A stretch of 64,000 bases of DNA from Candidatus Poribacteria bacterium (GCA_963667365.1 OY763324.1:4606509-4670508), one strand, 5' to 3'; shown: positions 1,945 through 37,584, numbered from the stretch's first letter. A program made the numbers and translations. Notes: a model not told the origin generated them from the sequence alone.

Positions 1945-2081
1945 AATCCATATCACTATCTATCTTTAGTCCCAGCAGAGCGAAAGGTTGAGTAACAGTA
2001 TCTAAATATCTATATTTTTCTTGATATTTCTATGGATTTATAGTATGCTATTAACCCAAGTTGCTCCCTATAAAATACTTT

Positions 2082-2411
2082 TTAATCCATAGGATTTCCT
2101 CTGAAAATCAATGGATATATCACAAATATGTTAGGACATTCACGATACAGTCGCAGGTTCATAATATATAAGGTTGTTTGAAACACTATTCGCAAATATC
2201 TAAATCCAATAATACGAAAGGTATTTATGCGATTGATACATACCCAGTCGCTGTGTGCGATAATATTCGGATCAGACAGTGTTGCATCTATCAGGGTAAA
2301 CAATGACGTGGTAGAATCGCAAGTAAACATCTGTATTCTTTTGGTCTCATAGCACATCTCATAGCCACCGAACCGGAGATATCTGGGTTGTGATAATCTA
2401 ATTCTTTGCAT
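2082..2411 (-). pseudogene. Fragment of an IS5-family transposase (internal DDE-domain piece)
   Basis: ...FTLIDATLSDPNIIAHS... resembles IS5 Ins5 TLVDATIIEAPSS. Lacks the N- and C-terminal parts; no IRs seen. Confidence 0.35.
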
Positions 2412-2562
2412 TGTTTTTTATATTTTTGAAAAATGATATTGAATGTTTTACAATAATCTGTTGATTTATAGGATTTTCGTGTTTTATCCTACCATATCTC
2501 ATCCTGTTACTCAAGCACGATTATGAACTTTTAGTCTTATCTAATCATACAGGACAATAAAA

Positions 2563-3855
2563 ATGAACAACATAACTCATATTCAAAATGACTTTAGTGA
2601 AAATATTGTTTGCGTAGATGGCAATATTCCAGTTGATCTACCAACAAAGGATGGAGACAGGTTTTTATTCATCAGTTACGATCAAAGTTGCCTAACACAT
2701 GGTTTGCACAAATACCCCGCCAAATTTTTCCCCGAGCTCCCTCGTTGGCTCATTAAACGTTATTCTCAGGAAAACGACTGGATACTTGATCCGTTTACTG
2801 GGAGCGGCACCACAAATGTTGAAGCTCTTCTCTTAAAACGCCACTCTGTAGGAATTGATGTTGATCCGTTTTCCAGATTCATTTCAACAGTAAAAGTAAC
2901 ACCTTTAGCGGTAAAAGAACTTCATTCCGCACAAAAACAACTTTTGGAGGCTATTTTTCACTATAGCTCTTCTCTCGTTACCGAAGCAGAATTACCCGAT
3001 TTCCCTTACAGAGATAACTGGTTCAATAAAAGCATCCTATTGGAGTTGACATACTTAAGAAAACAAATTCAATCCCTCGATACAAGCAATAAAGTGAAAG
3101 ACTTCTTCAAAGTCTGTCTGTCTTCTATAATCCGTTCTGTCTCTAATGCAGATAACAATTGCACTCGGACAGTAATACGGAAGAAATTGAATAAATTAGT
3201 TCGTCCCACTGATGCTTTAAACCGTTTTGTGAAAGCTCTCAACGTAAAAATTCCAAAAATGATGGAATTCTCCCAGAAATATCCAGCTAACATTACCATA
3301 GATTTTCCTTCAAATATGGAGGCAAGGGACATCAAATATAAGACGAATCACTTTCATTTAGCGTTAACTTCACCACCTTATGTCAATGCTGTTGACTATC
3401 CGAGAACCCACCAATTAGAAATGTATTGGCTCGGCTTTGCACAAGAATCATTACTCGCTCTAAAAAAACAGAATATCGGCACAGAAAGTGTTTCTGCCCT
3501 ACATTACAAGACCCTACACAATACAGGGGTACCAGAGGCTGATGAAGTTATAACAAACATCTTTAAGGTTGATCCGAGACGCGCTTACATCGCTTTTAAA
3601 TATTTAGACGATATGCGAAAAAACCTTATTGAAGTTCACAGAGTTTTGCACGAGGGGGGTAGATATATTGTTGTTGTTGGTAATAATCGAATTAGGGGAC
3701 ATTTATTTGAGAATTGGAAGTATCTCATATCCATCGCCAAAAACGTTGGTTTTGAAATTGAAACTTACTTCGGTTCTGAGATTATTAAGCACTTTATTAA
3801 AGTTCCTCGAGAACAACGTATCAACACCGACTGGATTCTCGTCCTCAAAAAATAA
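2563..3855 (+). CDS. DNA methyltransferase (N6-adenine / N4-cytosine, PF01555-like) of a type II RM system
   Basis: AdoMet-binding block ILDPFTGSGTTNVEALLLKRHSVGIDVD (aa 75-100), catalytic SPPY (aa 272-275), and ...HEGGRYIVVVGN. Confidence 0.75.
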   Translation: MNNITHIQNDFSENIVCVDGNIPVDLPTKDGDRFLFISYDQSCLTHGLHKYPAKFFPELPRWLIKRYSQENDWILDPFTGSGTTNVEALLLKRHSVGIDVDPFSRFISTVKVTPLAVKELHSAQKQLLEAIFHYSSSLVTEAELPDFPYRDNWFNKSILLELTYLRKQIQSLDTSNKVKDFFKVCLSSIIRSVSNADNNCTRTVIRKKLNKLVRPTDALNRFVKALNVKIPKMMEFSQKYPANITIDFPSNMEARDIKYKTNHFHLALTSPPYVNAVDYPRTHQLEMYWLGFAQESLLALKKQNIGTESVSALHYKTLHNTGVPEADEVITNIFKVDPRRAYIAFKYLDDMRKNLIEVHRVLHEGGRYIVVVGNNRIRGHLFENWKYLISIAKNVGFEIETYFGSEIIKHFIKVPREQRINTDWILVLKK

Positions 3856-3872
3856 GGAACGGAGGTAGATAC

Positions 3873-4382
3873 ATGGAAAATAGAGCTGCTTCGGGAAAAC
3901 AAGCCTCAGTAGATGGATTTGCCCACGAACATATAGCTGCTGCTATTTTGATGAAAAAATATCACCACGTCTCATTAATGGATGTTCCCTTATCGTCCTA
4001 CGACATGCTCATAGATCTTAAAAATACCAATAACAAGGAGCAAATAATTCGGGCACAAGTAAAAACAGCACGTAAGAGCATTCCATTTACAGGTGGCGGA
4101 CGGGGTGGCGTTGATAGAGAATACAGTTCGAACGTTAAGACTTATACGCATTCCACTGAAACTTCCGATGTTGTCATTGGCGTTCATCCAACAGCAGATA
4201 ATGCTTTTGTGCTCTATTTTGTTCCAACACTACTCATAGAAAAACTGGATCAGAAGAGCATCTCTATTCAAAAGGTAAAAGATTTGAAGGAAAATTATTA
4301 CATCTTAGAAAATTGCAAAAATGAGAAAATAGTAACCGAAAAATGTCAGGAATACGGTATTCTCCCAAAGCAAATACCTTAA
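3873..4382 (+). CDS. Putative small type II restriction endonuclease (PD-(D/E)xK-like)
   Basis: Starts 17 bp after the MTase stop, same strand. ...DMLIDL...IIRAQVKT fits a D...(D/E)xK core. 169 aa. RM genes are typically paired. Confidence 0.45.
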   Translation: MENRAASGKQASVDGFAHEHIAAAILMKKYHHVSLMDVPLSSYDMLIDLKNTNNKEQIIRAQVKTARKSIPFTGGGRGGVDREYSSNVKTYTHSTETSDVVIGVHPTADNAFVLYFVPTLLIEKLDQKSISIQKVKDLKENYYILENCKNEKIVTEKCQEYGILPKQIP

Positions 4383-4410
4383 TACGGTATTCTTCCAAAG
4401 CAAATACCCT
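4347..4410. repeat. Tandem 31-bp direct repeat, each unit a hairpin (ggtatt-N11-aatacc), spanning the REase stop codon
   Basis: gaatacggtattctcccaaagcaaatacct / taatacggtattcttccaaagcaaataccct. Two mismatches. Confidence 0.7.
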
Positions 4411-4559
4411 TGGTTTTCTAATCAGTCTCAAAATACGAAAGTTCACTTGAGGGAACATGCTCTCGCGGTCAAAAACGCCTCTGAGCTCTATACTGGTGGA
4501 TACTACGCTGAATCAAATCTAATAACGTACCACCCTTGCAGTCAAGAATTTCTGTAATG

Positions 4560-4853
4560 TCGGAGTTATGATGGAGGTCTATCAGAAAACAAGGTGTTTA
4601 CCACACCTTGCTGGGACACCTCAAAATGTCAGAGATGTTACCTGATAATATCTCTGACTCACGCCTCGTGAAAGAGAATGATAAATACTATCTCTGTGTT
4701 TCCTATACTGTGACAACTCCGAAGCGAAAGCCAAACGGAAGTGTTGTTGCTTTAGACCCTGGCGTGAGAACATTCCTCACATATTTTCATGAGCGTGATT
4801 TCGGATGGCTTGGACACCAGGCTATTAATATGAGTAACTTGCAAACCGTATAA
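4560..4853 (+). pseudogene. Degraded IS200/IS605-family TnpB (OrfB) remnant
   Basis: MEVYQKTRCLPHLAGTPQNV (4570-4632) resembles the TnpB N-terminus. In another frame, ...RLVKENDKYYLCVSYTVTTPKRKPNGSVVALDPGVRTFLTYF resembles the TnpB RuvC-I region (vGIDlGik). Total coding capacity is about 100 aa, against roughly 400 aa for an intact TnpB. Confidence 0.4.
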
Positions 4854-4987
4854 GAAGTGAAATACATAGTATCGCACGGATATATACAGGCCAATATCAT
4901 CGGTAGATTACCTATGCTGTTGATCTCCTACGCGAAACGTTTCCCACCCGCATAATCCGCAACGCAAACAAAAAAAATAAATATTTC

Positions 4988-5130
4988 TTGACTTACGATA
5001 ATTAACATGCTATAATATATCGTAAATAAAATTAACTTGACTTATCAATATTAGCATGCTATAATATATCATAAATAAAATTAACTTGACTTATCAATAT
5101 TAATATAGTATAATAACAAATAGTATAATA
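4988..5130 (+). promoter_or_regulatory. Three tandem 49-bp repeats, each a near-consensus sigma70 promoter (TTGACT-17 bp-TATAAT), plus a fourth -10-like tagtataat
   Basis: -35/-10 pairs at 4988-4993/5011-5016, 5037-5042/5060-5065 and 5086-5091/5109-5114. All point toward the gene at 5160. Confidence 0.7.
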
Positions 5131-5159
5131 ACAAACATCAAAAGGAACAATAAAATCAA

Positions 5160-5807
5160 ATGAAAAAAAGATTTATAGCAAGAGAAAAAGACGGAAACGT
5201 TATCATCGGCGGACACCACTCCGACAACGGAACTTTTATAACTTACAACGCAAACGAACCCACACAAGAAGAGGAATACGAAATCAGATACATCTACCAA
5301 CTCTTTTCAATACCAAACGTATACCACATTCACTTCTTCGACGAAGCTCAAGACGGCACCATATATGGACTCTCATTACCACCACAACCAGAATGGATCG
5401 TCAACATCGGATGGAACAACCTAACAATAACTGAAGCTATCGTCTGGACATGTCTTATCGCCTGCTATCACGAAAATAAAACCGCATGGGTACCACACAA
5501 CGATATTGATGAAGTACTAAAAGCATATAGAAGATCACCAGGATCACTCAAAATGACCATTAAAAAAATAAGACAAAAAATCGCAAATACAAAATGGCAC
5601 ATAGAGAACCTACGCAACGAAGGATACAGACTATCACAAATTGATAGGAAAGAGGCCGCAAAAAATGAATATATCAACGCAATAAAAAACGGATACCCCA
5701 AACACAAACTCGTAAATATTACCGCAGAGGCTACTGGAATATCACCACAACAGATACGAAGATGGGCAAAAAAATACCAATGGACAGATAACAAAAAGGA
5801 GAAATAG
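5160..5807 (+). CDS. Putative DNA-binding regulator (OmpR/CadC-type winged helix plus C-terminal HTH), lysine-rich
   Basis: ...SLKMTIKKIRQKIANTKWHIENLRNEGYRLSQI fits the trans_reg_C wHTH pattern. C-terminal ...ATGISPQQIRRWAKKYQW is HTH-like. Confidence 0.4.
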   Translation: MKKRFIAREKDGNVIIGGHHSDNGTFITYNANEPTQEEEYEIRYIYQLFSIPNVYHIHFFDEAQDGTIYGLSLPPQPEWIVNIGWNNLTITEAIVWTCLIACYHENKTAWVPHNDIDEVLKAYRRSPGSLKMTIKKIRQKIANTKWHIENLRNEGYRLSQIDRKEAAKNEYINAIKNGYPKHKLVNITAEATGISPQQIRRWAKKYQWTDNKKEK

Positions 5808-5810
5808 AAA

Positions 5811-6422
5811 ATGAATACGAAAAAACCTGCTATAGTCCCAAAAAAAGATAAAGACAGGTTTAATGTGGACACAAAATATCCTAACATACAAAAACATCAT
5901 TATCATATCTATATCAAACTCTGTGCAAAATACGGCATAGATAAACGAGGGATGCGACGCGTCAACACAGAAATGCTGAAAATATTAGGCATGACAGTAA
6001 CACCCGAAAATCGTGTTTGGTGCCGTAACAAATTCAGATCAGCAAACCCAACAAGTCCAAGATTTAAGCAAGAATATAAACCGTATTATAAAAATGAAAT
6101 CGTCACAGAATCGTCCATTTACCTATCCAGTGCAAAGTCCGCACTCGTCAATGACGAAGCACTGTTAGACGACTTTCTGGAGGAATACGAATTGGACGAT
6201 TGTGCAGACTTAATCGGCCAATTAACACCTTATGAAAAATCTAAATTCCTTATTGAACTTCTCAAATACCGTCCAGAAAATATTTCCAGTCAAGGACAAA
6301 TCTATATCCTCGCACAAGCACAAGCTGCCTCTCTCTCGACAGATGGTGATAGACACAGAGTCAGAGATAACACTGATGACGTTGAAGGACAGGATACACT
6401 TGATGGAACAGACAACGGATAA
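5811..6422 (+). CDS. Hypothetical protein (positional candidate for a small terminase or accessory subunit)
   Basis: ORF only. Its stop overlaps the downstream terminase-like gene. Confidence 0.3.
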   Translation: MNTKKPAIVPKKDKDRFNVDTKYPNIQKHHYHIYIKLCAKYGIDKRGMRRVNTEMLKILGMTVTPENRVWCRNKFRSANPTSPRFKQEYKPYYKNEIVTESSIYLSSAKSALVNDEALLDDFLEEYELDDCADLIGQLTPYEKSKFLIELLKYRPENISSQGQIYILAQAQAASLSTDGDRHRVRDNTDDVEGQDTLDGTDNG

Positions 6423-8100
6423 ACAGAAAATTCAAGCAATCTGCTTTTTAGATGTCGGGTGTTTCGCTTGGAAATACTTTGAAGAATACATCACCAGCGC
6501 ATTCGGTAAACATCACGAACCGATATTCACTGCTATTGGATTAGGTGAACGTGGCAAACGTGTCAATATACTTGCTCCACGCGGTAGTGCCAAAAGCACC
6601 TGCATGGCAATTATCTATCCATTGCATTGCATATTCTTTAAGTGGGCTTATGAAACACTCGGACTTGAACCTTTCAGTTTTATTGTTATTCTCTCTAAAT
6701 CACACACTATGGCAAAATCAAGAATACAAGACATCAAACGGAAGATAGAGACAGACACACGATTCAAACATCTCAAAGGTAAAGAAAGCTGGGGAGAAAC
6801 ACGTCTCATCACAAGCAACGATGTACTGCTCGTACCAAACTCACGCGGTGGACAGATACGCGGTTCTCTGTTCGGAGGACATAGACCCGACCTCATTATC
6901 TCGGATGACCTTGATGATCCTGAATCTGTGCGTAATCCTGATGTGCGTGCCAAAGACCAGTTGTGGTTTGACAGTGATTTAATGCGGGCTGGCAGTCTTG
7001 ACGGCACAACCAACTTCATCAATATAGACACGGTCAAGCATGCAGAAGCAACTGCAAACTTACTGCGGCAACGGGCAGGTTGGCGGACTCTCTTTTTTCG
7101 AGCAATAGAACATCCCGCTGATCTATGGCACCCAACAGCAGAGGAATCATGGAAACAATGGGAGAAGATATATACCAATCTGGAATTGGAAAATACAGAC
7201 CGTATAACACAAGCGGACGCATTCTACAATGAAAATAAGGAACAGATGACAGCAGGTGTCAAGGAATTGTGGCCGGAAGCAATTACATATCTGGATGTAC
7301 GGAAAGAAATCTGCGATGTTGGATACTTCCCTGTGCTGCGTGAATTACAGAATAGCACACACGACCCATCACAAGCACTCTTTGATATGGAGAACGCTAT
7401 GAGATTCACGTTGGCTAACAATGGCTTACTGCGTTCAGACAATCGTCTTGTCGCGTGGCAGGAGATCGCAGGTGTCACGATATTTTTGGACTGGGCAGGC
7501 GGTAAAGAAATCGCGGATAACTGCTTTGCTGCGTGTGTTGCAGTTGCTTGGGTGCCACTACCCGGCTCACGACAAGACCAAACTGATGCTATTATGGACG
7601 GTGTTCACGGCTACGTCATAGACGCGAACCTCGCACGTGTCGGTGCTACAGAACAGATGCGGATGATATTTGATATGATTGATAAGGTGCGTGCTGAGAT
7701 ACCGAAACGTGACATCAAAATCAGACTCGGTATTGAAGGCTTTGTTCAGGACACATGGAATGCACAAAAACAGGTGATTGAACAGGACTTTCGGAAAGAG
7801 AAGGACGCACGCAACGTTCGCGATTGTCCAACTATTGAATGGTTACCTCGACTCAAAAACAAATTTGATCGTATTGACGCATTACAACCGATAATCCGAA
7901 ACGGATGGCTCGCCTTCAGAAAAGGACTACACAACGAATTTTACAAGCAGATGAGTTTATATCCCACTGGGGACTTCCTTGACGCACCTGATGCGCTTGA
8001 AGGTGCATGTCAATTACGAGTGAGTCGTTTTGAATCTGAACGTAAACAACGTAAGGACGCTGCTCGCAGAAGAAATCAAAACTTCAAAGTACGCATTTAA
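6403..8100 (+). CDS. Phage terminase large subunit-like protein (ATPase plus RNaseH-fold nuclease). The ORF is open from 6232; likely start at 6403, 6376 or 6343.
   Basis: Walker A-like ILAPRGSAKST. Walker B / catalytic RPDLIISDDLDD. Nuclease-domain motifs IFLDWAGGKE and FLDAPDALEGA. Confidence 0.7.
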   Translation: MEQTTDKQKIQAICFLDVGCFAWKYFEEYITSAFGKHHEPIFTAIGLGERGKRVNILAPRGSAKSTCMAIIYPLHCIFFKWAYETLGLEPFSFIVILSKSHTMAKSRIQDIKRKIETDTRFKHLKGKESWGETRLITSNDVLLVPNSRGGQIRGSLFGGHRPDLIISDDLDDPESVRNPDVRAKDQLWFDSDLMRAGSLDGTTNFINIDTVKHAEATANLLRQRAGWRTLFFRAIEHPADLWHPTAEESWKQWEKIYTNLELENTDRITQADAFYNENKEQMTAGVKELWPEAITYLDVRKEICDVGYFPVLRELQNSTHDPSQALFDMENAMRFTLANNGLLRSDNRLVAWQEIAGVTIFLDWAGGKEIADNCFAACVAVAWVPLPGSRQDQTDAIMDGVHGYVIDANLARVGATEQMRMIFDMIDKVRAEIPKRDIKIRLGIEGFVQDTWNAQKQVIEQDFRKEKDARNVRDCPTIEWLPRLKNKFDRIDALQPIIRNGWLAFRKGLHNEFYKQMSLYPTGDFLDAPDALEGACQLRVSRFESERKQRKDAARRRNQNFKVRI

Positions 8101-8252
8101 TAGGGTTATATAATGCGACAACAAACCGAAATAAATGACATCTGATGATTTCAAGGGATTTGTGATATAACTATTAGAAAGACAATAATTTGATTTGTAC
8201 CTAAGTATGTTGTTTAGACGTTAAAACTGTAGAGTAATCTACCAAAATTGGT

Positions 8253-10211
8253 ATGAAAAATAAATGGAGTTATAGAATGCAGTTCAAAACGTTAGTCCTT
8301 ATCAGTGTTGTAGTAATTATATTAGGAATTGGGGTGGTTGCAGATGGTTCTTCTGGAATAGATCATCGTGATATTTTTGTTGGTGCAAGTGCAAGGGCAG
8401 TCGGTATGGGAAGTGCCTTCACCGCAGGTCCCTCAACTAATAACGGTTTTTTATGGAATCCTTCATCACTTGGATTTATGAATGGCTTGGAAGTCAATAT
8501 GGGAGGAATTCCGTTTTCTGGTGAACCCTCAGGACCAGATCAGGCATTTTCTTTTGCCGCGAGTCCCTATACACTCGGTTTAACAGATAAAAATGTAGGA
8601 AATCTCTCTTTAGCATCATGGTTCAATGGTTGGAACAATAGCAATAGTGAATCTACGCAGATTGTACTTTTAGGATATGGCTTGGCATTTGGTCCACAGA
8701 CATCAGCTGGTGCGAATATACGCTATTATCAGCACAACACACCGACAAGAACAAATTATCTTTGGAGCACTGATATAGGGATGCAGTTTACATATCCATT
8801 GGAAAAGGTTGGAGATTCAATTACGTTTGGTATGAATCTATCAGAATTAAGCAATGGAATTCGTGAAAATGGTGAACTAATTGAAAGTCTACCATTGGCA
8901 GCACGTTTCGGAACAACATATCGTCCTGACAGTGCAACTCTGTTATCTGCCGATGTTGCTATACGAGGACAAAATGATGCGAATTGGGGTGAAAGGCTTC
9001 GGTTACATTTTGGTGCAGAACGTTGGTTATTTAACAATCATCTCGGTATTCGCGTAGGATATACAGCACTAACTGCATCCGACAAATTTAGTGCTGGTCA
9101 ATGGACTCAAGGAATTAGTTTTCAAAACTCTTCTGGACAGTTAGATTATGCACATGTTCGTGGCGGTGATTTAGATCAAAGTCTGCATTGGATCTCAGCT
9201 ACATTACGTTGGGGTGGAAAAGATAGACAAATAACATTTTCTAAGCCTAAATCTTCTTCATCAAAACCTACAACCGAATCAAAAGGTAGAGATGATACAG
9301 AGACAATTCAACCGATCCTTATGCCGAAAACACTTGATGCAAATCCAGAAACTGATGTGAATAGAAGAGAATTACAACTTTCCAATAATGCTATTTCACC
9401 GAATAGTGATGGGGTAGCTGACAGCACCACATTCCAGTTTAGTGTAAGGGCAAATGATAAATGGCGATTAACACTTCGTGATGCATATACAGAACAGGTA
9501 TGGGAGAAAACTGGAACTGGCTCACTATCAGAGGGTGTGGTTTGGAATGGAATGGGAACATCTGGTAAATTAGTTCCTGATGGCGACTACGTCCTACAAT
9601 TACATATTATTGATTCTGAAGGCAATGCACATCTAAGGCATAGCAAAAAAGTCACGGTAGACCTGATTCCCTCTACGGTTGATGTATCCAAAAAAAGTTC
9701 TACAAGTGTCGGCATAAAGGTATTTGACATCAATCCTATAACTGAATGGAAACTTGATATATATGATGCAAGCAATACGTTAGTGGAAAATAGTGAGGGT
9801 AAAGGCTCCCCACCAGAGACGATAGTCCTAACAAAAGTTCCACAGTCAACCACAGCAAAATATCGATTCGCATTGACAGTCAAAGATATTGCTGGAAATC
9901 AGAGTATTCAACAAGCACAGCTACAATTCGGTAGTGGAAATGCTGATAGCAATACTCAGGTTGTAACTGATGAACCTAAGTTAACATTGATGGTCGGGTC
10001 CTTCGGTGAAAGACGCAATGCAAATATGTTGGCTGAGAATCTACGACGTTTATATCCGAATGAAACAGTGAAAATATATACTGCTACTGTGAATGGAGAT
10101 GCGATGCATAGGGTAACAATCGGAACGTTCGTTGAACGTTCGGAGGCATCTGGACTCATGCAACAAATTCAAGAATCGCAAGGTGTTGAACCTATATTGA
10201 TTACACCGTGA
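8253..10211 (+). CDS. Outer-membrane FadL/PorV-like beta-barrel protein with Ig-like middle region and C-terminal SPOR (peptidoglycan-binding) domain
   Basis: Signal/TM N-terminus. GASARAVGMGSAFTAG...WNPSSLG fits the FadL-family N-terminal pattern. C-terminal LMVGSFGERRNANMLAENLRRLYP...VTIGTF is SPOR-like. Confidence 0.5.
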   Translation: MKNKWSYRMQFKTLVLISVVVIILGIGVVADGSSGIDHRDIFVGASARAVGMGSAFTAGPSTNNGFLWNPSSLGFMNGLEVNMGGIPFSGEPSGPDQAFSFAASPYTLGLTDKNVGNLSLASWFNGWNNSNSESTQIVLLGYGLAFGPQTSAGANIRYYQHNTPTRTNYLWSTDIGMQFTYPLEKVGDSITFGMNLSELSNGIRENGELIESLPLAARFGTTYRPDSATLLSADVAIRGQNDANWGERLRLHFGAERWLFNNHLGIRVGYTALTASDKFSAGQWTQGISFQNSSGQLDYAHVRGGDLDQSLHWISATLRWGGKDRQITFSKPKSSSSKPTTESKGRDDTETIQPILMPKTLDANPETDVNRRELQLSNNAISPNSDGVADSTTFQFSVRANDKWRLTLRDAYTEQVWEKTGTGSLSEGVVWNGMGTSGKLVPDGDYVLQLHIIDSEGNAHLRHSKKVTVDLIPSTVDVSKKSSTSVGIKVFDINPITEWKLDIYDASNTLVENSEGKGSPPETIVLTKVPQSTTAKYRFALTVKDIAGNQSIQQAQLQFGSGNADSNTQVVTDEPKLTLMVGSFGERRNANMLAENLRRLYPNETVKIYTATVNGDAMHRVTIGTFVERSEASGLMQQIQESQGVEPILITP

Positions 10212-13279: not shown

Positions 13280-13315
13280 TCGTTTGGTTTCTTTTTGTTG
13301 AACGGATTAATGGAA

Positions 13316-13698
13316 TTATTCGTCTGCTTTTACAAGAGTTTGATAGTAGAGGGCTTGGCTGATTCTTGTTCCCTGCAAACGAAGTTCATCAAGTATTGGT
13401 TTGACTATCGGAATTACTCCTTAATCTCTTGAGCAAGTACGATGGTGGCACATTCACCTATATGTAGAGACTTTTGATTCTGAAGTTCTATCACTTGATT
13501 CAAGTCAGTCACTGAATGACAATGGATCCACTCTGCTGCTTCAACTTCTGCCGCTCCTTGTTTTCCTGCACCATCTACAACTACTTCAATGTAGACTTCT
13601 TCAGGGATAATAATTGAGTGGTAAACCTTCCGAAGCAGATCTAATTGACTAATTTTTGAAAGTTCAATCAAAGGTGTGCTATTTGTGACAATTTTCAT
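13316..13698 (-). pseudogene. DUF3368 (PIN-like) toxin, disrupted by frameshift and internal deletion
   Basis: ORF 13414..13698 encodes the N-terminal 94 aa (MKIVTNSTPLIELSKI...EVYIEVVVDGAG). A different frame, 13316..13420, encodes GVIPIVKPILDELRLQGTRISQALYYQTLVKADE, the typical DUF3368 C-terminus. Confidence 0.5.
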
Positions 13699-14160: not shown

Positions 14161-17100
14161 TTATTCCGCTTTCGGCAATGTTGGCAGTGTTAAACGTGGA
14201 CGGTCACCAAAATCGGGGAGTTCGGGTGGGTTTTCTTCCATTTCCTCAAGGAGGAGTTCTATTGCCTTATCAAGTTGTGGGTCACCCTCAGCAATGTAAT
14301 CCTGTGGACGGTAATCTACTTCAATGTCTGGATCAGTACCGTAGTTTTCAACACTCCAACCGACATCTTCGAACCAGAAAGAGTACTCAGGTTGTGTTGT
14401 GGAACCTCCATCTACAAACCCTTGATGTGGTGATATTCCGATGACACCACCCCAAGTTCGTTTACCGATTAACTTTCCTAACTTCATTAGCTTGAAACAG
14501 TGAGAGAATATATCACCATCAGAACCCGCATTTTCGTTGGTAACGGTTACCATTGGTCCTAACACAGATGCAGCAGGATATGGGTTCGGTGTACCCCATC
14601 GTGGATGGGCATATCCAATACGACGGCGAGACAACTTTTCTAAAATGAGTTGCGAGACATTACCTCCACCGTTATAACGTACATCAATGAGTAGACTGGG
14701 ATAACTAACTTCTGCCAAGTATCCCCGATGGAATTCCGCATATCCACGTCTTCCCATGTCAGGGATATGGACGTATCCTACCTTACCATCCGTTTTTTCG
14801 TGAACGTACTTTCGATTTTGTGCTACCCATTCACGATACCGTAACTCGCTTTCACCGCTAAGGGTTTTGATGGTGACAACGCGTTTCTCTCCATCTTTAG
14901 CATTTTTGAAGGTTGCTTGCACCTCTTGTCTACCCAGATTGACCAATAACTCACCTGGTGAGATATTTTGACTAACAGATTGCCCACCAATCGCAAGCAA
15001 TATGTCATTTTCTTGAACATTAATTCCGGGAGCGTTCAACGGAGAATCCCTTCTCTCATTCCAAGTATCTCCTCGAACTATGTGTGTAATACGATATCCG
15101 TTATTGTCTGGATCGTAGACATAATCAGCACCGAGAAATCCTTGTCCGTAGTTTGGCGAACTGCGGTAATCACCACCAGATTCATACGCATGTGATGTAC
15201 CCAGTTCTCCTTGCATTTCCCACATAAGGTCAGAAAATTCCGCACGGGTTGCTATCCTATCAAGTAATGGTAGATAACGTTGATATACGTTTTCCCAATC
15301 CACATCGGACATATTTTCTGTCCAGAAATAATCGCGCTGAAGTCGCCACGCTTCGCGATACATTTGTGCCCATTCTGCTGTTGGGATAACGGAGGGTCTG
15401 ATTCGGTTAATTTCTATCCAACCAGTATGACGATTAGAGCCTTTGTTCTCAGACTTTTGACCTTCTTCAACTTTTCTGCCAGCTTTTATAACACGCAACC
15501 GATTTCCTGTGCGATACACAAGAAACTTATTGTCTCGTGAGAGTTGGAAGTTATCAATATCTGAAACGAGAACTTCCTTCTTCTGTTCTTTGAAATCGTA
15601 AACATGGAGTTTACCTTTAGATCCTGAATCCTCTTCACCAGGTGAATTCTGGGTGTGTCTAACGGGAAAAGTAGTAAAAATCACTTTTCCCTCAATCCCA
15701 TCAATCTGTCCGTATCGTCCATGCGAATAGGGAAAAGCGACTATACGTTGTTCAATACCATCTAATTCAATATTAATCGGTTTTTTCTTTTTCTCTTCAG
15801 CTTTCTTTTTAGCATCTTCATCTTTCTCTGATGACTTGTCTTCAGAATCTTTGTCCTCTTTATCCTCTTTTTCTTTGTCTTTTTCATCTTCTGGTGATGG
15901 AGCAGCAGGCACAAATGGGTTGGGTAAATCCTTCTGCAAGGTCACCAACAGTGGACGTGTAGCGATAGGGAAACTAAGGTCAAAGTGTAACGCATCACCA
16001 ACAGGATCAAATTCCCGTTGGGAGAAAAAATATAGGTATTTTCCATCTGGATCCCATGCGGGTGCATAGTCTTTGAATTCAGGTTGTGTAACATACCAAG
16101 TTTCACCTGTTTCAACTTTACAAAGCTTAATTGATGAAGTAGTTTCTGTAGCAGGAAAACTATAGGCGATCCATTTACCATCTGGCGACCAATTTGCACC
16201 TTGGATGCGGTTGTATAGGCTTTTGTCAAGTACCCGCAGTTCTGAAGTTTCCAATTCTATATGGAGAAGTTCAAAACGGTGATTAACGATTAGGATCTGA
16301 TCTTTTAAGTTATCACCTTTAGGACATACGACCAGTTGTCGGACATGTCCTATATCCAATTCGTCAAGTCGACGTATCTCATCACTACCGTCGCAGGTAT
16401 GGATTTCTAACGCTTCCTCGCCATCTGTATCAGAGAGGGTAATGACACGTTTTCCATCGTTCAGCCATTGTGTCTTACGGTAGCGAGTACCGTTACGTTT
16501 ACCCTGTTGTAGAACGGCACCATCCCAATTTGCCATTGTGAATAGTTTTCCACGAGAAGTTAAGGCAAGAGATTGACCCTTAGGAGATGGTGCAAATTCC
16601 TGCAGATATTGCGAGGCACTTACAAATTTTCGTTGTCGTTGAATACGTGGACTGCGGAATTCAACATCAACTTTATAATTGTTATCATTTTCAATATCGT
16701 AGACCCATAGGTCAGCACCGGCATGGTAGACGATGCGTGTACCATCAGTTTGTGCTGATCTGCTATAATATGTTTCTTGATGTGTGTGACGTTGCATGTC
16801 TTCACCAGAAGTCAGACATGAGTAGATATTTCCAACACCTTCGTGATCTGAGATAAAATAGATACGTTCCCCTACCCACATCGGTGTAGTAAAATTACTA
16901 TCAACTGGAGTCAAAGGTTGAAATTGTCCATCACCCTCGTTGTCTAACCAGAGTTGACCTGCAGTTCCACCACGATAACGTTTCCATCGTGCGGGTTCAC
17001 GTGTCAACCTACCGAGTATAACACCACCATTACTGCCAAATGATATGTGGTTTGCTGGACCGTAGGGAAGTCGTTGTGGTTCTCCACCTTCTTGAGAAAT

Positions 17101-17445
17101 GCTCCATATCCACGCTCCGAATGCAGAACCAGCAGCACTGGAATATAGAATGTTTTCTCCATCTACATCCCACCCGACAATACTGGCATTGCTTCCTTGA
17201 TATGTAAGTCGTTTTGCTTCTCCTCCGAGTGCTGGCATGACGTATACTTCCGCTGGACCTTCTTCACGTCCAGCAAACGCGAGTAGTTCACCGTTTGGTG
17301 ATAGTTGTGGGGAACTTGTTGCACCAAGATTTGATGTGAGCCTACGTGCTACTCCACCAGTGATTGGGACTGTCCACAAATCATCCTCACATACAAATAC
17401 AATAGTTTCATTGGAAATAGTTGGGAATCGAAAATATCCTGACAT
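14161..17445 (-). CDS. tri: Tricorn protease homologue (beta-propellers plus PDZ plus S41-type peptidase)
   Basis: 1094 aa. IVFVCEDDLWTV and LIGKRTWGGVIGISP match Thermoplasma tricorn IIFVCCDDLWEH and LIGTRTWGGVVGITP. Acidic KE-rich insert at about aa 500-560. Confidence 0.85.
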   Translation of the reverse strand: MSGYFRFPTISNETIVFVCEDDLWTVPITGGVARRLTSNLGATSSPQLSPNGELLAFAGREEGPAEVYVMPALGGEAKRLTYQGSNASIVGWDVDGENILYSSAAGSAFGAWIWSISQEGGEPQRLPYGPANHISFGSNGGVILGRLTREPARWKRYRGGTAGQLWLDNEGDGQFQPLTPVDSNFTTPMWVGERIYFISDHEGVGNIYSCLTSGEDMQRHTHQETYYSRSAQTDGTRIVYHAGADLWVYDIENDNNYKVDVEFRSPRIQRQRKFVSASQYLQEFAPSPKGQSLALTSRGKLFTMANWDGAVLQQGKRNGTRYRKTQWLNDGKRVITLSDTDGEEALEIHTCDGSDEIRRLDELDIGHVRQLVVCPKGDNLKDQILIVNHRFELLHIELETSELRVLDKSLYNRIQGANWSPDGKWIAYSFPATETTSSIKLCKVETGETWYVTQPEFKDYAPAWDPDGKYLYFFSQREFDPVGDALHFDLSFPIATRPLLVTLQKDLPNPFVPAAPSPEDEKDKEKEDKEDKDSEDKSSEKDEDAKKKAEEKKKKPINIELDGIEQRIVAFPYSHGRYGQIDGIEGKVIFTTFPVRHTQNSPGEEDSGSKGKLHVYDFKEQKKEVLVSDIDNFQLSRDNKFLVYRTGNRLRVIKAGRKVEEGQKSENKGSNRHTGWIEINRIRPSVIPTAEWAQMYREAWRLQRDYFWTENMSDVDWENVYQRYLPLLDRIATRAEFSDLMWEMQGELGTSHAYESGGDYRSSPNYGQGFLGADYVYDPDNNGYRITHIVRGDTWNERRDSPLNAPGINVQENDILLAIGGQSVSQNISPGELLVNLGRQEVQATFKNAKDGEKRVVTIKTLSGESELRYREWVAQNRKYVHEKTDGKVGYVHIPDMGRRGYAEFHRGYLAEVSYPSLLIDVRYNGGGNVSQLILEKLSRRRIGYAHPRWGTPNPYPAASVLGPMVTVTNENAGSDGDIFSHCFKLMKLGKLIGKRTWGGVIGISPHQGFVDGGSTTQPEYSFWFEDVGWSVENYGTDPDIEVDYRPQDYIAEGDPQLDKAIELLLEEMEENPPELPDFGDRPRLTLPTLPKAE

Positions 17446-17710
17446 TCACACCTCCACGGATTGAGTTAGTAATAATTGAATAACATTTCCTATTATGTTA
17501 ATTTACTGTCGTTGTAGAAATAACATAGACACATTATTGTAAGAAAGGAAAAAGACTAAATGTAATAGGCGAGGCACCATATCACATCAAATGTATCAAA
17601 ACATTCAATGAGGACCTCGCCATACAGATTCAAGATTCAAGTCTAAGACAAGACACGCATATGGTCTTAGTTTATTGATAGCAATTGCAAACTTGGAGGA
17701 AGAGTATATT

Positions 17711-20704
17711 TCACTCTAATTTTGCCTGCTCTTCAGAACTTGATGGGTCTCCAAGCCAGAGTTCTACAGCCGGACTGCTTGCGATGCGTCTATTTCCAAC
17801 TGAAGCATTTATGACAAATGTATACGGTCTTGTCTGCTTATTTCCGGCGAACGGGTTTCGGCGTAGTTCGTTAGTACCGCTGGTAATAATGTTTGGTATA
17901 AGGGTTATTGTTGCCTCCGATTTACCTCTTCGGAGTACAGTGGTTTCTCGTTGGAGTCTCACTCCGAACGGTAATCCGACTACAGTTAGGTTCATGTTCT
18001 GTCGATTCCCATTACGTCTATTAACACTGACGGTAATATCAACCGGTCCATCTGGTGTTACTATAACTTCATTAGGGGTTGCAGATACGATGATGGGTGA
18101 GGACTCAGTAACACTCACAACCACGTTCTTGCGTTGTACAGTCTGATCATTATTCCGAATACGATATACCTGTATTGGGGTAGCTGCACGTCGTATCTTA
18201 TGTCCGGTTGCCGTATTCACAGTACCGACTACCTGAACGACGCTATGTGCCAAGTCCGCGTCTGCTGCAGCGGTCAGGGTTAGATACCCTTGGTTATTAC
18301 CACCTTCAGAAAGAATAGCACTCTGACTTGCTGTAATTCCTGGAGGTAGATTTTCAACTGAAAGTAGTATCGGTTCCGTAAACCCAACTCGACGTTGGAG
18401 TGTAACTTCCAACAACACTGTTCCACCCCGTCCAATGTTCGGATTGTCTGGTGTCACTGAAATAGCAAAGTCAGGAACGGTTGGACGTATGTCTAAGTGG
18501 TATACATAACCTGCTCCACCTTTACCAGATACATCTTCAACGCGAAGTGCATATTCCCCCGGACGTGCAAAACTGTAATCAATAATTGCATTTCGTCTGC
18601 CACCTCTACCAGCATTATTTCTTAATACCCGACCTTCCGCGCTTAACAATGTCAAGGAAGGACTCAGAGGAGAATTCAGTTTTTCTGCAGATAAATCGAT
18701 GGAATATCCACCGATATCTGCGAAAAATCCCCATGGACCGTATCCATTCGTAACCTTAACGAGAATTTTGTTCCTACCTTTTTTAACCGGTAATTCAATA
18801 ACGTCATCGCCTCGGTTTAAAGGTCTATGTACATATTTGCTGAAAATGAGTTTATCGTTTACCCATATCTTTATGGTGTCATCTGACCCAAGTGATAGGA
18901 TGTACTTCTGGTCCCGTTTAGATTGGAAGTAAGTTAGAGCATATCCAGTCACATCATCTTCTGGCACACTGGAAAAGACATTTTCGCCTCTACTGTTGGT
19001 TCTATACCATTTAATCCGTCTTCCCTCTTTTCCTACATATTCCTTCTTTAAATCAATTTCTATTTCAGGTGGGAAGACATTTTCATAACCTTTCTCGTCT
19101 GTGTTGTCAAATGGGTGAATCACCCACCAAGGACCGAGACGTGAACCTTCTTCAATAGTAAAGCGGTAATAGTCCACCTCTCCCGGTTTAGAAATACGTC
19201 CGCTGATCGCACCTGGGGTTGCGACTTGTTGTGAACTTTCAATCCGTTTGGCAATAAGCTGCCCCATCCGGACGACTTCTTCAGCGACAAAAGCGATGAT
19301 ACGATCCCGATCTGTGTCGGTAATATCAGCATTTTCTTTCCCTGCCATACGAGTGATGGTTGCTTCCCACTGTTCGGAGGTAAGTGCACGGTTTTCCGGT
19401 GAACGAAGCTCATGGCATGCTGTGCATTTACCTTGAAATAAAATTTCGGATTCAGCATTCTTAGCATGCTCTTCGTTTTCTTCAGCAATATCTGTGGCTT
19501 GGTTATCAGCATTTGCATCTACCGATTGTTCTACTTCCTCAGAATATTGGTTAGCGATAAATGGGAATATACCGTAAGAAGTACGTATGAGTGTTACCCC
19601 TGGCTGCTGATCACTCGGTAATTCAATTTCCAATTCAGTTTCTGGCAGATTTTCACCACCAATTGTGGTTTTAGTTTTAGTGCCAATTTTACCACCTGTT
19701 GGGTAAATATAGGTATTATATGGGACTACACCGATTATCAAACGGTATACAGAATCTGGATTTCCACGATAGAGTAGGTCTCGAATACGAAGGAAGTAAG
19801 TTCCATCATCAGGTAATGTATAGTCAATTAGTGGATCAAGACTAAAAAATCCGTTGCTGCGTGCAAGTTCCGTTCCTTGTGAATCAATTAAGGAGATAGT
19901 AGGATTAAAGAAGGTCTGGCTGATGTTGTTATATCTATATGCTTTTACATTGAAAACACATCGTTCTCCTTTTAATCCTTCAAAAGTGAAGTAATCTTCG
20001 TCACCACCTGAATTGATGACCCCATTGACAATGATCGGTAATTCAATATCAGATGCGGATTCGGTGTCGTTATTTGATTCAATCTCAACAGTATCAGGTA
20101 CATCTGTTACTTCAAAGGGCCATGCAGTAGAAGCACCGTTTTTACCAACGATACGAATTTCACGTACACCGATTTGGGCATCAGGTGCAATTTCTAACTC
20201 AACAGTCATGCCACCTGTTGCCTTCGCGGCAGATTTTAGGTAATGAACGATGTTTGTTTGATCGTCTTCACTGATTTCTGCACCTTTGTCCTGCACCATA
20301 CGTTTTACAACAGCTGTCCACTGTGTTCCTGTCATAGAACGATTGCTTGGGGAACGGAGTTCATGACACTGACCACAATTCGCTTCAAAAACAGGTTTAT
20401 GCGTTTCATCAACTTCCCCACCACCTGGATTGAGTTTTCCAGTGATGCCAGGGTCACCTTCAACAATAAGTGTATGCGCACCGTCTAAATCTGAACCTTG
20501 TATTTTTACCTCAACCGTTTTTCCAACTTGTGCTCCTGCGGGAAAAAGAGAATTTAGACGTGGAGTGGCTTGAGCAAACACAGTAATAGGCGCACACATT
20601 GAAACAAGGAACATCAATAGCAGAATCTGTTGTACTCTTAACATTGAAATGAAGTTGAATTGTTGATTATTACAGAATAAAATAAACTTATTTCGTACCC
20701 ACAT
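17711..20704 (-). CDS. Secreted Planctomycete-type cytochrome c (PSCyt) domain protein with Ig-like domains
   Basis: Signal peptide. Two CxxCH motifs (CGQCHELRS, CTACHELRS), each followed by ...W...RM. Confidence 0.6.
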   Translation of the reverse strand: MWVRNKFILFCNNQQFNFISMLRVQQILLLMFLVSMCAPITVFAQATPRLNSLFPAGAQVGKTVEVKIQGSDLDGAHTLIVEGDPGITGKLNPGGGEVDETHKPVFEANCGQCHELRSPSNRSMTGTQWTAVVKRMVQDKGAEISEDDQTNIVHYLKSAAKATGGMTVELEIAPDAQIGVREIRIVGKNGASTAWPFEVTDVPDTVEIESNNDTESASDIELPIIVNGVINSGGDEDYFTFEGLKGERCVFNVKAYRYNNISQTFFNPTISLIDSQGTELARSNGFFSLDPLIDYTLPDDGTYFLRIRDLLYRGNPDSVYRLIIGVVPYNTYIYPTGGKIGTKTKTTIGGENLPETELEIELPSDQQPGVTLIRTSYGIFPFIANQYSEEVEQSVDANADNQATDIAEENEEHAKNAESEILFQGKCTACHELRSPENRALTSEQWEATITRMAGKENADITDTDRDRIIAFVAEEVVRMGQLIAKRIESSQQVATPGAISGRISKPGEVDYYRFTIEEGSRLGPWWVIHPFDNTDEKGYENVFPPEIEIDLKKEYVGKEGRRIKWYRTNSRGENVFSSVPEDDVTGYALTYFQSKRDQKYILSLGSDDTIKIWVNDKLIFSKYVHRPLNRGDDVIELPVKKGRNKILVKVTNGYGPWGFFADIGGYSIDLSAEKLNSPLSPSLTLLSAEGRVLRNNAGRGGRRNAIIDYSFARPGEYALRVEDVSGKGGAGYVYHLDIRPTVPDFAISVTPDNPNIGRGGTVLLEVTLQRRVGFTEPILLSVENLPPGITASQSAILSEGGNNQGYLTLTAAADADLAHSVVQVVGTVNTATGHKIRRAATPIQVYRIRNNDQTVQRKNVVVSVTESSPIIVSATPNEVIVTPDGPVDITVSVNRRNGNRQNMNLTVVGLPFGVRLQRETTVLRRGKSEATITLIPNIITSGTNELRRNPFAGNKQTRPYTFVINASVGNRRIASSPAVELWLGDPSSSEEQAKLE

Positions 20705-23345: not shown

Positions 23346-23661
23346 AGTTGTTCTCCTAAAATTGGTTAGCAGTTATCTCATAATTCTAAAAACTATCAAC
23401 ACTCATGAGATATATTCCAATATGTTGGATGTCTATATGTCAAGATGACCGTTGACAAGTTGAACATTCATTTCACTAACATTGTTGCTTATTATATCGG
23501 AGGGTTTTACCTTGGTGATATGCGAAATATGGAACGAAAACCATCCTAACCGCACTTCAAGATATCAGATTGATTAATTATATCGTATTAAAAGGTGTAT
23601 GTCAAGGGAAAATGACACAAATCAAAGTCATGTTATTTATACTGTTTCTTAGGAATTATTT

Positions 23662-37476: not shown

Positions 37477-37584
37477 GTGTATTGACCCAAACATCCCTCC
37501 ATCACATTTTTCATTCATTCAATAATTTTGCAATTTAACTTGACATTTGTCAAAAAACGTTGTATCATAATATTTTGTGATTTT

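Follow-up and report, generated by a model that had tools for sequence, protein, structure and literature searches.

A tandem array of predicted near-consensus promoters upstream of an orphan terminase cassette in Candidatus Poribacteria

The Locus and Its Genes

The locus lies in a 64,000-nucleotide stretch of Candidatus Poribacteria DNA, analysed as a whole and referred to below as the window, with positions counted from its first letter. It comprises a tandem array of 49-bp repeats that bear promoter-like hexamers, followed by a gene for a lysine-rich regulator (g1), a gene of no recognised family (g2) and a gene for the large terminase (TerL). The sequence-only reading had placed the array ahead of a lysine-rich regulator and terminase module, and this placement is correct: the array is directly upstream of the genes for the lysine-rich HTH protein and the terminase, and on the same strand. 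The features from the upstream RM gene to the end of TerL are as follows.

58–1944, + strand: remains of a type IIG (MmeI-like) RM gene, in two parts (58–711 and 1582–1944) split by an IS5 transposase fragment (766–1185)
About 1989–4901, strand not applicable: 2.9-kb insertion relative to loci L007 and L008, separating the RM remnant from the array (junction AAAGGT ... GGTAGATT)
Content of the 2.9-kb insertion: a DNA methyltransferase (N6/N4) gene at 2563–3855, a 169-aa ORF (phrog_5018) and a TnpB/OrfB fragment at 4608–4853
4902–4974, + strand: conserved non-coding leader, common to the RM-linked copies L007 and L008 (blastn identity 90–94% from 4902 onward)
4975–5121, + strand: tandem array of three 49-bp units (A, B and C), 83% A+T
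5142–5147, + strand: Shine-Dalgarno-like AAGGAA, 13 nt before the ATG of g1
5160–5807, + strand: g1, a lysine-rich winged-helix/HTH regulator of 215 aa
5811–6422, + strand: g2, 203 aa, with an acidic C-terminal tail and no family match
6376–8100, + strand: TerL (large terminase), with an uncertain start codon (6232, 6376 or 6403)

In L007 and L008, the RM gene is intact and lies directly upstream of the array (5650–8934 and 6049–8979, respectively). PADLOC matched only the neighbouring RM and methyltransferase genes, and returned no match for g1, g2 or TerL. A 30-bp tandem repeat (4351–4408) is also found inside the 2.9-kb insertion.

The cassette ends exactly at the stop codon of TerL, where the homology between its copies also stops, and the genes that follow in the window are host genes encoding an SPOR/Ig-like protein, an amidohydrolase, an ABC permease and acetate kinase. 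The named members of the 90%-identity cluster to which this acetate kinase belongs are Candidatus Poribacteria, which makes a poribacterial host most likely. Genes for a portal, capsid, tail or integrase are all absent from the vicinity of the window cassette, and TerL is the sole phage-type match there besides the methyltransferase and the transposase. Within 10 kb of the cassettes in the window, L007, L008 and L009, no integrase, replication, att, structural or capsid-redirecting genes were found, and a search for direct-repeat boundaries at the cassettes gave none. Proteins encoded downstream in the other loci likewise had no head, tail or portal match, and produced only two weak matches to PHROGs that have no assigned function. 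A prophage remnant was considered as a candidate and rejected, because every copy terminates with the stop codon of TerL and the downstream genes are unrelated to one another and not of phage type. The attribution of the array to a phage early region is not upheld: the cassette is chromosomal, flanked by host genes, preceded by RM remains and closed by the TerL stop codon, with none of the portal, capsid, tail or integrase genes nearby, and the related phage contigs lack the array, g1 and g2 in the parts examined.

Sequence of the 49-bp Array

The observation of three tandem promoter sequences of the form TTGACT-17 bp-TATAAT with a 49-bp period was confirmed by TRF, by a repeat search and by a promoter scan. 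TRF reported a 49-bp period with 2.9 copies (4975–5115), and also a 15-bp unit with 2.1 copies (5105–5135). The repeat search placed the units at 4975–5023, 5024–5072 and 5073–5121, the second and third being 80% and 67% identical to the first, and the promoter scan matched each unit to the consensus at 11/12 positions, with 5/6 in the −35 hexamer and 6/6 in the −10 hexamer. As the units are copies of one another, the array represents a single consensus promoter that was tandemly duplicated, not three independent events. The predicted promoter elements are listed below.

4988–5016, + strand: P1, TTGACT-17-TATAAT with a TG extended −10; predicted start site about 5024, inferred 5′ untranslated leader of about 136 nt
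5037–5065, + strand: P2, TTGACT-17-TATAAT with a TG extended −10; predicted start site about 5073
5086–5114, + strand: P3, TTGACT-17-TATAAT without TG; predicted start site about 5122
5100–5129, + strand: P4, a weak candidate, TTAATA-18-TATAAT (10/12, poor −35); predicted start site about 5137
5105–5134, + strand: 15-bp tandem duplication (ATAGTATAATAACAA twice), yielding a fourth TATAAT at 5124–5129

The fourth tagtataat that the sequence-only reading had noted is thus present at 5124–5129, but it derives from the separate 15-bp duplication and is served by a poor −35 element (TTAATA, 18-bp spacer); the duplication is specific to the window, being missing from all other array loci. With the start sites predicted for P1 to P4, transcripts would begin 136, 87, 38 and 23 nt before g1. 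The 14–22 bp upstream of the hexamers are A/T-rich (AAATAAAATTAAC), and a TG dinucleotide precedes the −10 box of P1 and P2 but not of P3. Across the 64-kb window, the pattern TTGAC-N18-TATAAT occurs four times against an expected 0.08, and three of the four occurrences are inside the array. A conserved operator palindrome was also considered (TAGCATGCTA in units A and B), and was rejected since it is not kept in the other units.

The hexamers can be compared with those used by the host. The promoter of a tRNA-Lys/tRNA-Glu operon in the window reads TTGACA-17-TATCAT (37540–37568), and TTGACA-17-TATAAT occurs at 23577–23605 on the − strand, in an intergenic region about 230 nt upstream of a 437-aa host ORF. 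From these two host promoters (n = 2), the host RNA polymerase appears to use an E. coli-type consensus.

Conservation and Spread of the Units in Related Loci

The same array stands directly upstream of g1 in five further loci (L001, L002, L007, L008 and L009); L007, L008 and L009 are complete, L001 is degraded and L002 is a short contig. A second Poribacteria genome, of 6.4 Mb, holds several copies of the cassette. The number of units is two in L001, L002 and L009, three in the window and L008, and eight in L007. The A–B–C order of units is common to the window and L008, which belong to two different genomes, and the arrays of these two loci, leader included, are 91% identical in nucleotide sequence. 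In L007, a 180-bp MITE was inserted just 3′ of a −10 box, and two units together with the MITE were then duplicated, producing a higher-order repeat of 277 bp in 3.4 copies. Small local duplications also differ, with 10 bp duplicated in L008 and 15 bp in the window.

Over the 20 units of the six loci, the −35 hexamer TTGACT and the 17-bp spacer are kept in 20/20, and the −10 hexamer TATAAT in 17/20. The exceptions, one TGTAAT and two CATAAT, coincide exactly with the L007 units that have a MITE, and not a gene or another unit, next to them on the 3′ side. When these MITE-adjacent units are set aside, the 12 hexamer columns of the remaining 17 units are all invariant, whereas 15 of the 31 other columns vary (Fisher P = 0.003); when all 20 units are counted, the figures are 2/12 and 15/31 (P = 0.085), and non-consensus cells amount to 3/240 in the hexamers and 72/620 elsewhere. 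The description of the units as near-consensus sigma70-type promoters is upheld at the level of sequence, as the core sequence features of strong promoters are present, and both hexamers and their spacing are kept through 20 units in six loci. Since the units share a common descent within a young block and represent few independent events, this conservation is supportive and not decisive, and the perfect hexamers could partly reflect recency (dS < 0.1 for the array and g1) and not selection.

These comparisons bear on the proposal that only the gene-proximal promoter matters, the additional units being neutral by-products of slippage or unequal crossing-over in A/T-rich DNA. The differing copy number of two, three or eight, the last reached in L007 through the 277-bp higher-order duplication, is also the outcome expected of neutral slippage, and the small locus-specific duplications noted above and the youth of the block (g1 dS 0.02–0.09) point in the same direction. 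Against neutrality, perfect hexamers and the 17-bp spacing persist in the distal units even as their spacers and flanks diverge, degraded −10 boxes occur only in units that a MITE has cut off from the operon, and the A–B–C arrangement is common to two genomes. On this balance, neutral extra units are an unlikely explanation of the array.

Two MITE families are inserted in or beside the arrays. The first is about 180 bp long, with terminal inverted repeats AACCYAAGTTGCCACC ... GGTAGCAACT; it occurs in L007 (9140–9320, 9418–9598 and 9697–9875), in L008 (12856–13010) and also at 2055 and 34722 of the window. The full insertions in L007 and L008 lie directly 3′ of TATAATAA, in one case after a −10 box and in the other after the TerL stop codon. 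The second, MITE-like element (CAGGACGGACGCATTCCCCCCGC ... TGCGTCTGTCCTG) has numerous copies in the 6.4-Mb genome, and in both L001 and L009 it borders the array in place of unit A; its sites include 9340–9470 and 9730–9860 in L001, 9344–9860 and several others in L009, and 6611–6813 in L016. The g1 gene of L001 is interrupted in frame by yet another element, of 135 bp, giving a 260-aa protein (P0003).

Such MITE-rich surroundings are what would favour regarding the 49-bp repeat itself as a dispersed genomic satellite or MITE-like element, present at this site by chance and without any role as a promoter. The distribution of the unit speaks strongly against this. No further copy was found in the 64-kb window at up to three mismatches, and all known arrays are directly upstream of g1. 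Degenerate unit patterns gave three isolated single matches in 185,579 species genomes, one in IMG/VR and nine in a metagenome collection, and no arrays in any of them; the chance single matches fell in unrelated organisms and samples (Gracilibacteria, Peribacteria, Tenericutes, gut and TARA contigs). Rfam returned nothing for the window array at E ≤ 1, and for the L007 array only AfaR at E ≤ 1 (score 19.6 bits, gathering cut-off 100; E = 0.92), which is a chance match. The repeat is thus not the common satellite that the sequence-only reading had entertained as a counter-explanation, and a dispersed element without promoter function is highly improbable.

The Regulator g1 and the Protein g2

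The g1 protein is modelled as an N-terminal β domain, an OmpR/ToxR-like winged helix (residues ~78–160) and a C-terminal three-helix HTH (162–213) of the HTH_28/Terminase_5 type. Pfam matches to Trans_reg_C and HTH_28 are below threshold (Trans_reg_C at 19.1 bits against a cut-off of 26.2). An AF2 model from three sequences was too poor (pLDDT 56), and the model used was built on a 20-sequence alignment (pLDDT 75), in which three helices and a β hairpin are formed at residues 90–160. The best Foldseek domain matches of this model are the DNA-binding domains of SaeR, CssR, TcpP, ToxR and PmrA, with probabilities of 0.85–0.98 and all E-values above 0.001. A PDB sequence search with g1 gave no meaningful match.

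The family is small, with 20 homologous proteins found by HMMER among 1.84 billion representatives and three clusters in a search of 5.8 billion proteins. Remote homologs either carry Trans_reg_C domains or are small proteins with the C-terminal HTH and weak HTH_28 or Terminase_5 matches. The closest homolog outside the cassettes, 39% identical, is encoded on an integrase-bearing circular element of 14 kb, where its gene stands first opposite a gene of the MerR type; no tandem array is present on this element. This element of about 14 kb (L012/L013/L014), assembled as a dimer, carries genes for a tyrosine recombinase, the MerR-like protein, RuvC and a 1010-aa protein, and the g1 homolog is the first gene of its rightward operon.

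The g2 gene occupies the position that TerS has in related phages. Two very different alleles of g2 exist, that of the window being divergent, with 25–29% identity to the g2 of L007–L009; the two are related to each other only weakly (hhalign E = 0.002). Neither allele showed any relationship to phage TerS by hhalign, and the window g2 had no homolog in the search of 5.8 billion proteins.

The association of array, regulator and terminase raises the alternative that the 49-bp repeats are mainly protein-binding sites, either operators for g1 or a pac-type recognition site for the terminase, in which the promoter hexamers are embedded. Repeated binding motifs for the small terminase are known from the R sites of lambda cosB and from pac sites, and OmpR-type domains typically bind tandem direct repeats. 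The array shares with the cosB and pac systems the placement of direct repeats beside terminase genes, with a winged-helix/HTH protein encoded alongside; it is immediately upstream of the terminase genes, it has been passed on together with g1 in one block of high conservation, and the C-terminal HTH family of g1 gives weak Terminase_5/HTH_28 matches. The two differ in that the conserved positions of the array are RNA polymerase hexamers, and in that the cassette lineage has no detectable TerS homolog, g2 being without homology to the TerS of related phages. The invariant positions are moreover exactly the two hexamers and their spacing, with no separate motif; other units do not keep the GCATGC palindrome of A and B, and 49 bp does not correspond to a whole number of helical turns. 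A primarily binding-site function is accordingly held to be quite unlikely, and it is compatible with the promoter explanation, not exclusive of it.

The Terminase and Related Phages

TerL matches phrog_38 over residues 63–610 (E = 5e-54); it has no Pfam match, two NCBIfam matches below their cut-offs and no meaningful match in a PDB sequence search. The motifs PRGSAKST, LIISDDLDD, FLDWAGG, IEGF and DAPDALEG have the same sequence in phage TerLs, and the Walker A and Walker B motifs of the ATPase and the acidic nuclease motifs are all intact, from which the enzyme is predicted to be catalytically intact. The dN/dS ratio of TerL between cassette copies is 0.05–0.07, indicating that the genes downstream of the array are under selection, which for TerL would be strong purifying selection.

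TerL has 315 homologs, many of which are on contigs of 39–46 kb. On two phage contigs, L010 (TerL 86% identical) and L011 (72% identical), the gene order is TerS, TerL, portal, and g1, g2 and the array are absent from the parts of these contigs that were examined. A blastn search with positions 4900–8150 against 50,697 phage records gave no match, and scanning viral contigs with the g1 and TerL proteins as seeds found nothing. In a neighbour-joining tree of TerL, computed with no bootstrap, the TerL of the phage contig L010 falls within the cassette clade, and the chromosomal TerLs interleave with those of contigs of about 40 kb. The TerLs of the cassettes would thus appear to track phage diversity. 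On L010, a contig of about 46 kb, an Acb2/Tad1-like gene (13291–13659; anti-CBASS/Thoeris sponge) adjoins the portal gene.

The history of the promoter–regulator block is distinct from that of the terminase. For the same pairs of cassette copies, dS is 0.02–0.09 in g1 and 0.5–1.6 in TerL, a difference of tenfold or more between 4902–5861 and 6450–8100, and between the window and L008 the nucleotide identity is 96% in g1 and 80.5% in TerL. The block of high identity, about 0.9 kb, covers approximately 4902–5861, that is, the array and g1, and the last 140–170 bp of the RM gene also belong to it. This gap in dS suggests that a constant promoter–regulator block was recently spread or homogenised, as by gene conversion, over terminase genes that had diverged far more deeply. 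As to base composition, g1 has a GC content of 34% and TerL of 42–46%, and the segment 5001–6000 of the window has an AT skew of 0.38, an extreme excess of A over T; both would fit an origin of g1 separate from that of TerL.

A Model for Array Function

The reading preferred here, to which a probability of roughly 0.7 is given, is that the array consists of functional and very strong promoters of the housekeeping sigma factor, which arose by duplication of one 49-bp unit and drive a g1–g2–TerL operon that g1 itself probably autoregulates. It is well supported by the sequence and by comparison among loci, and is unproven. Each unit would consist of an A/T-rich upstream stretch, TTGACT, a 17-bp spacer, an optional TG and TATAAT, would have been multiplied by tandem duplication, and would recruit the housekeeping holoenzyme to begin transcription at the predicted start sites. 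With 49 bp between these sites, RNA polymerases could occupy neighbouring units, and polymerases arriving from upstream would collide with those sitting downstream; given such collisions at a 49-bp pitch, output should rise with copy number, but less than proportionally. The g1 protein, co-inherited with the array as a near-identical block, probably binds the repeats and would in this way autoregulate the operon.

Several known systems can be set beside this model. The A1, A2 and A3 promoters of T7, which stand at the left end of the phage genome with about 125 bp between them, have no sequence relationship to one another and drive early host-takeover genes, while packaging genes are late genes in phages. 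The likening of the array to T7 A1–A3 is apt insofar as several strong, near-consensus and co-directional promoters for host RNA polymerase precede one phage-type operon; it is inapt in that the array is made of homologous 49-bp repeats, lies on a bacterial and not a phage chromosome, and precedes a regulator and packaging genes. The suggestion that the array serves as a sink that titrates RNA polymerase is not supported. The rrn P1–P2 promoters are a further case of tandem promoters. Closer in geometry are the closely spaced tandem promoters of E. coli, both native and synthetic, which are likewise co-directional, with start sites more than 35 bp apart; at such distances the promoters do not occlude one another, polymerases collide with the polymerase on the downstream promoter, and output falls between that of one promoter and the sum, so that a tandem pair yields one to two times the output of a single promoter (PMC8830795; PMC11339919). 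An additive output reduced by collisions is what would be expected of the array as well. The E. coli pairs are usually dissimilar, of ordinary strength and often differently regulated, whereas the array has three to four near-identical, near-consensus units that were duplicated and whose copy number varies between paralogous loci.

If functional, the array is a clean natural case of near-consensus promoters that vary in copy number at a 49-bp pitch. It would be of use both as a strong-promoter part and in work on how promoters interfere, and it offers an initial view of the promoters of a phylum that is uncultured.

The Orphan Terminase Cassette

The context of the array matters more than the array itself. 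Intact phage TerLs without virion genes are found in several copies per genome behind a shared, homogenised block, and this orphan, multi-copy terminase module with its predicted strong promoters, for which no described counterpart was found, is the more unusual finding of the two. A literature search on orphan or host-encoded terminases, in Poribacteria or as defence, returned nothing relevant. As a tentative and, at present, doubtful proposal, the array may be the expression switch of an undescribed chromosomal element, namely a minimal, strongly expressed, multi-copy "orphan terminase" cassette, often RM-adjacent, in which a constant promoter–regulator block has been recombined onto TerL genes that track those of phages of about 40 kb now infecting the host, and that acts on phage packaging or in-situ packaging. 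As a defence, it could hinder the packaging of phage DNA; alternatively, it could initiate the in-situ packaging of adjacent host DNA in phage capsids, in the manner of satellite-like or GTA-like lateral transduction. The Poribacteria that carry the cassettes are uncultured and sponge-associated, and if the cassettes do act on phage packaging or gene transfer, they would represent a new kind of phage–host interaction module in sponge symbionts.

The systems for comparison are the packaging modules of PICI, cf-PICI and PICMI elements and the in-situ packaging of lateral transduction. With phage satellites, the cassette shares phage-derived terminase genes that reside in the chromosome outside a complete prophage, its TerL being 86% identical to that of a co-occurring phage. 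In contrast to satellites, it is without integrase, replication and att features within 10 kb, it has TerL and not only TerS, it ends at the TerL stop codon, and it is present in several copies per genome, often beside RM genes.

Two other, more distant chromosomal orphan terminase cassettes of Poribacteria, L015 and L016, are both without a tandem array. L015 consists of a 204-aa gene and TerL beside a type III RM system. L016 encodes a 159-aa protein, then a bona fide TerS and then TerL, and its 159-aa protein resembles the winged helix of g1 by eye, though not by BLAST or profile comparison. Since L015, L016 and the 14-kb element that carries the g1 homolog have no tandem array, the array is not required for such cassettes.

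Downstream of the cassette in L007, three to four tandem gene pairs, each of a 54-aa ORF and a 269–297-aa ORF without family matches, occupy 14529–18668. In L016, at 7382–7439 between the 159-aa gene and TerS, a single TTGATT-17-TATAAT is immediately followed by a terminator-like hairpin with an 11-bp stem, and this promoter–hairpin arrangement may constitute an attenuator.
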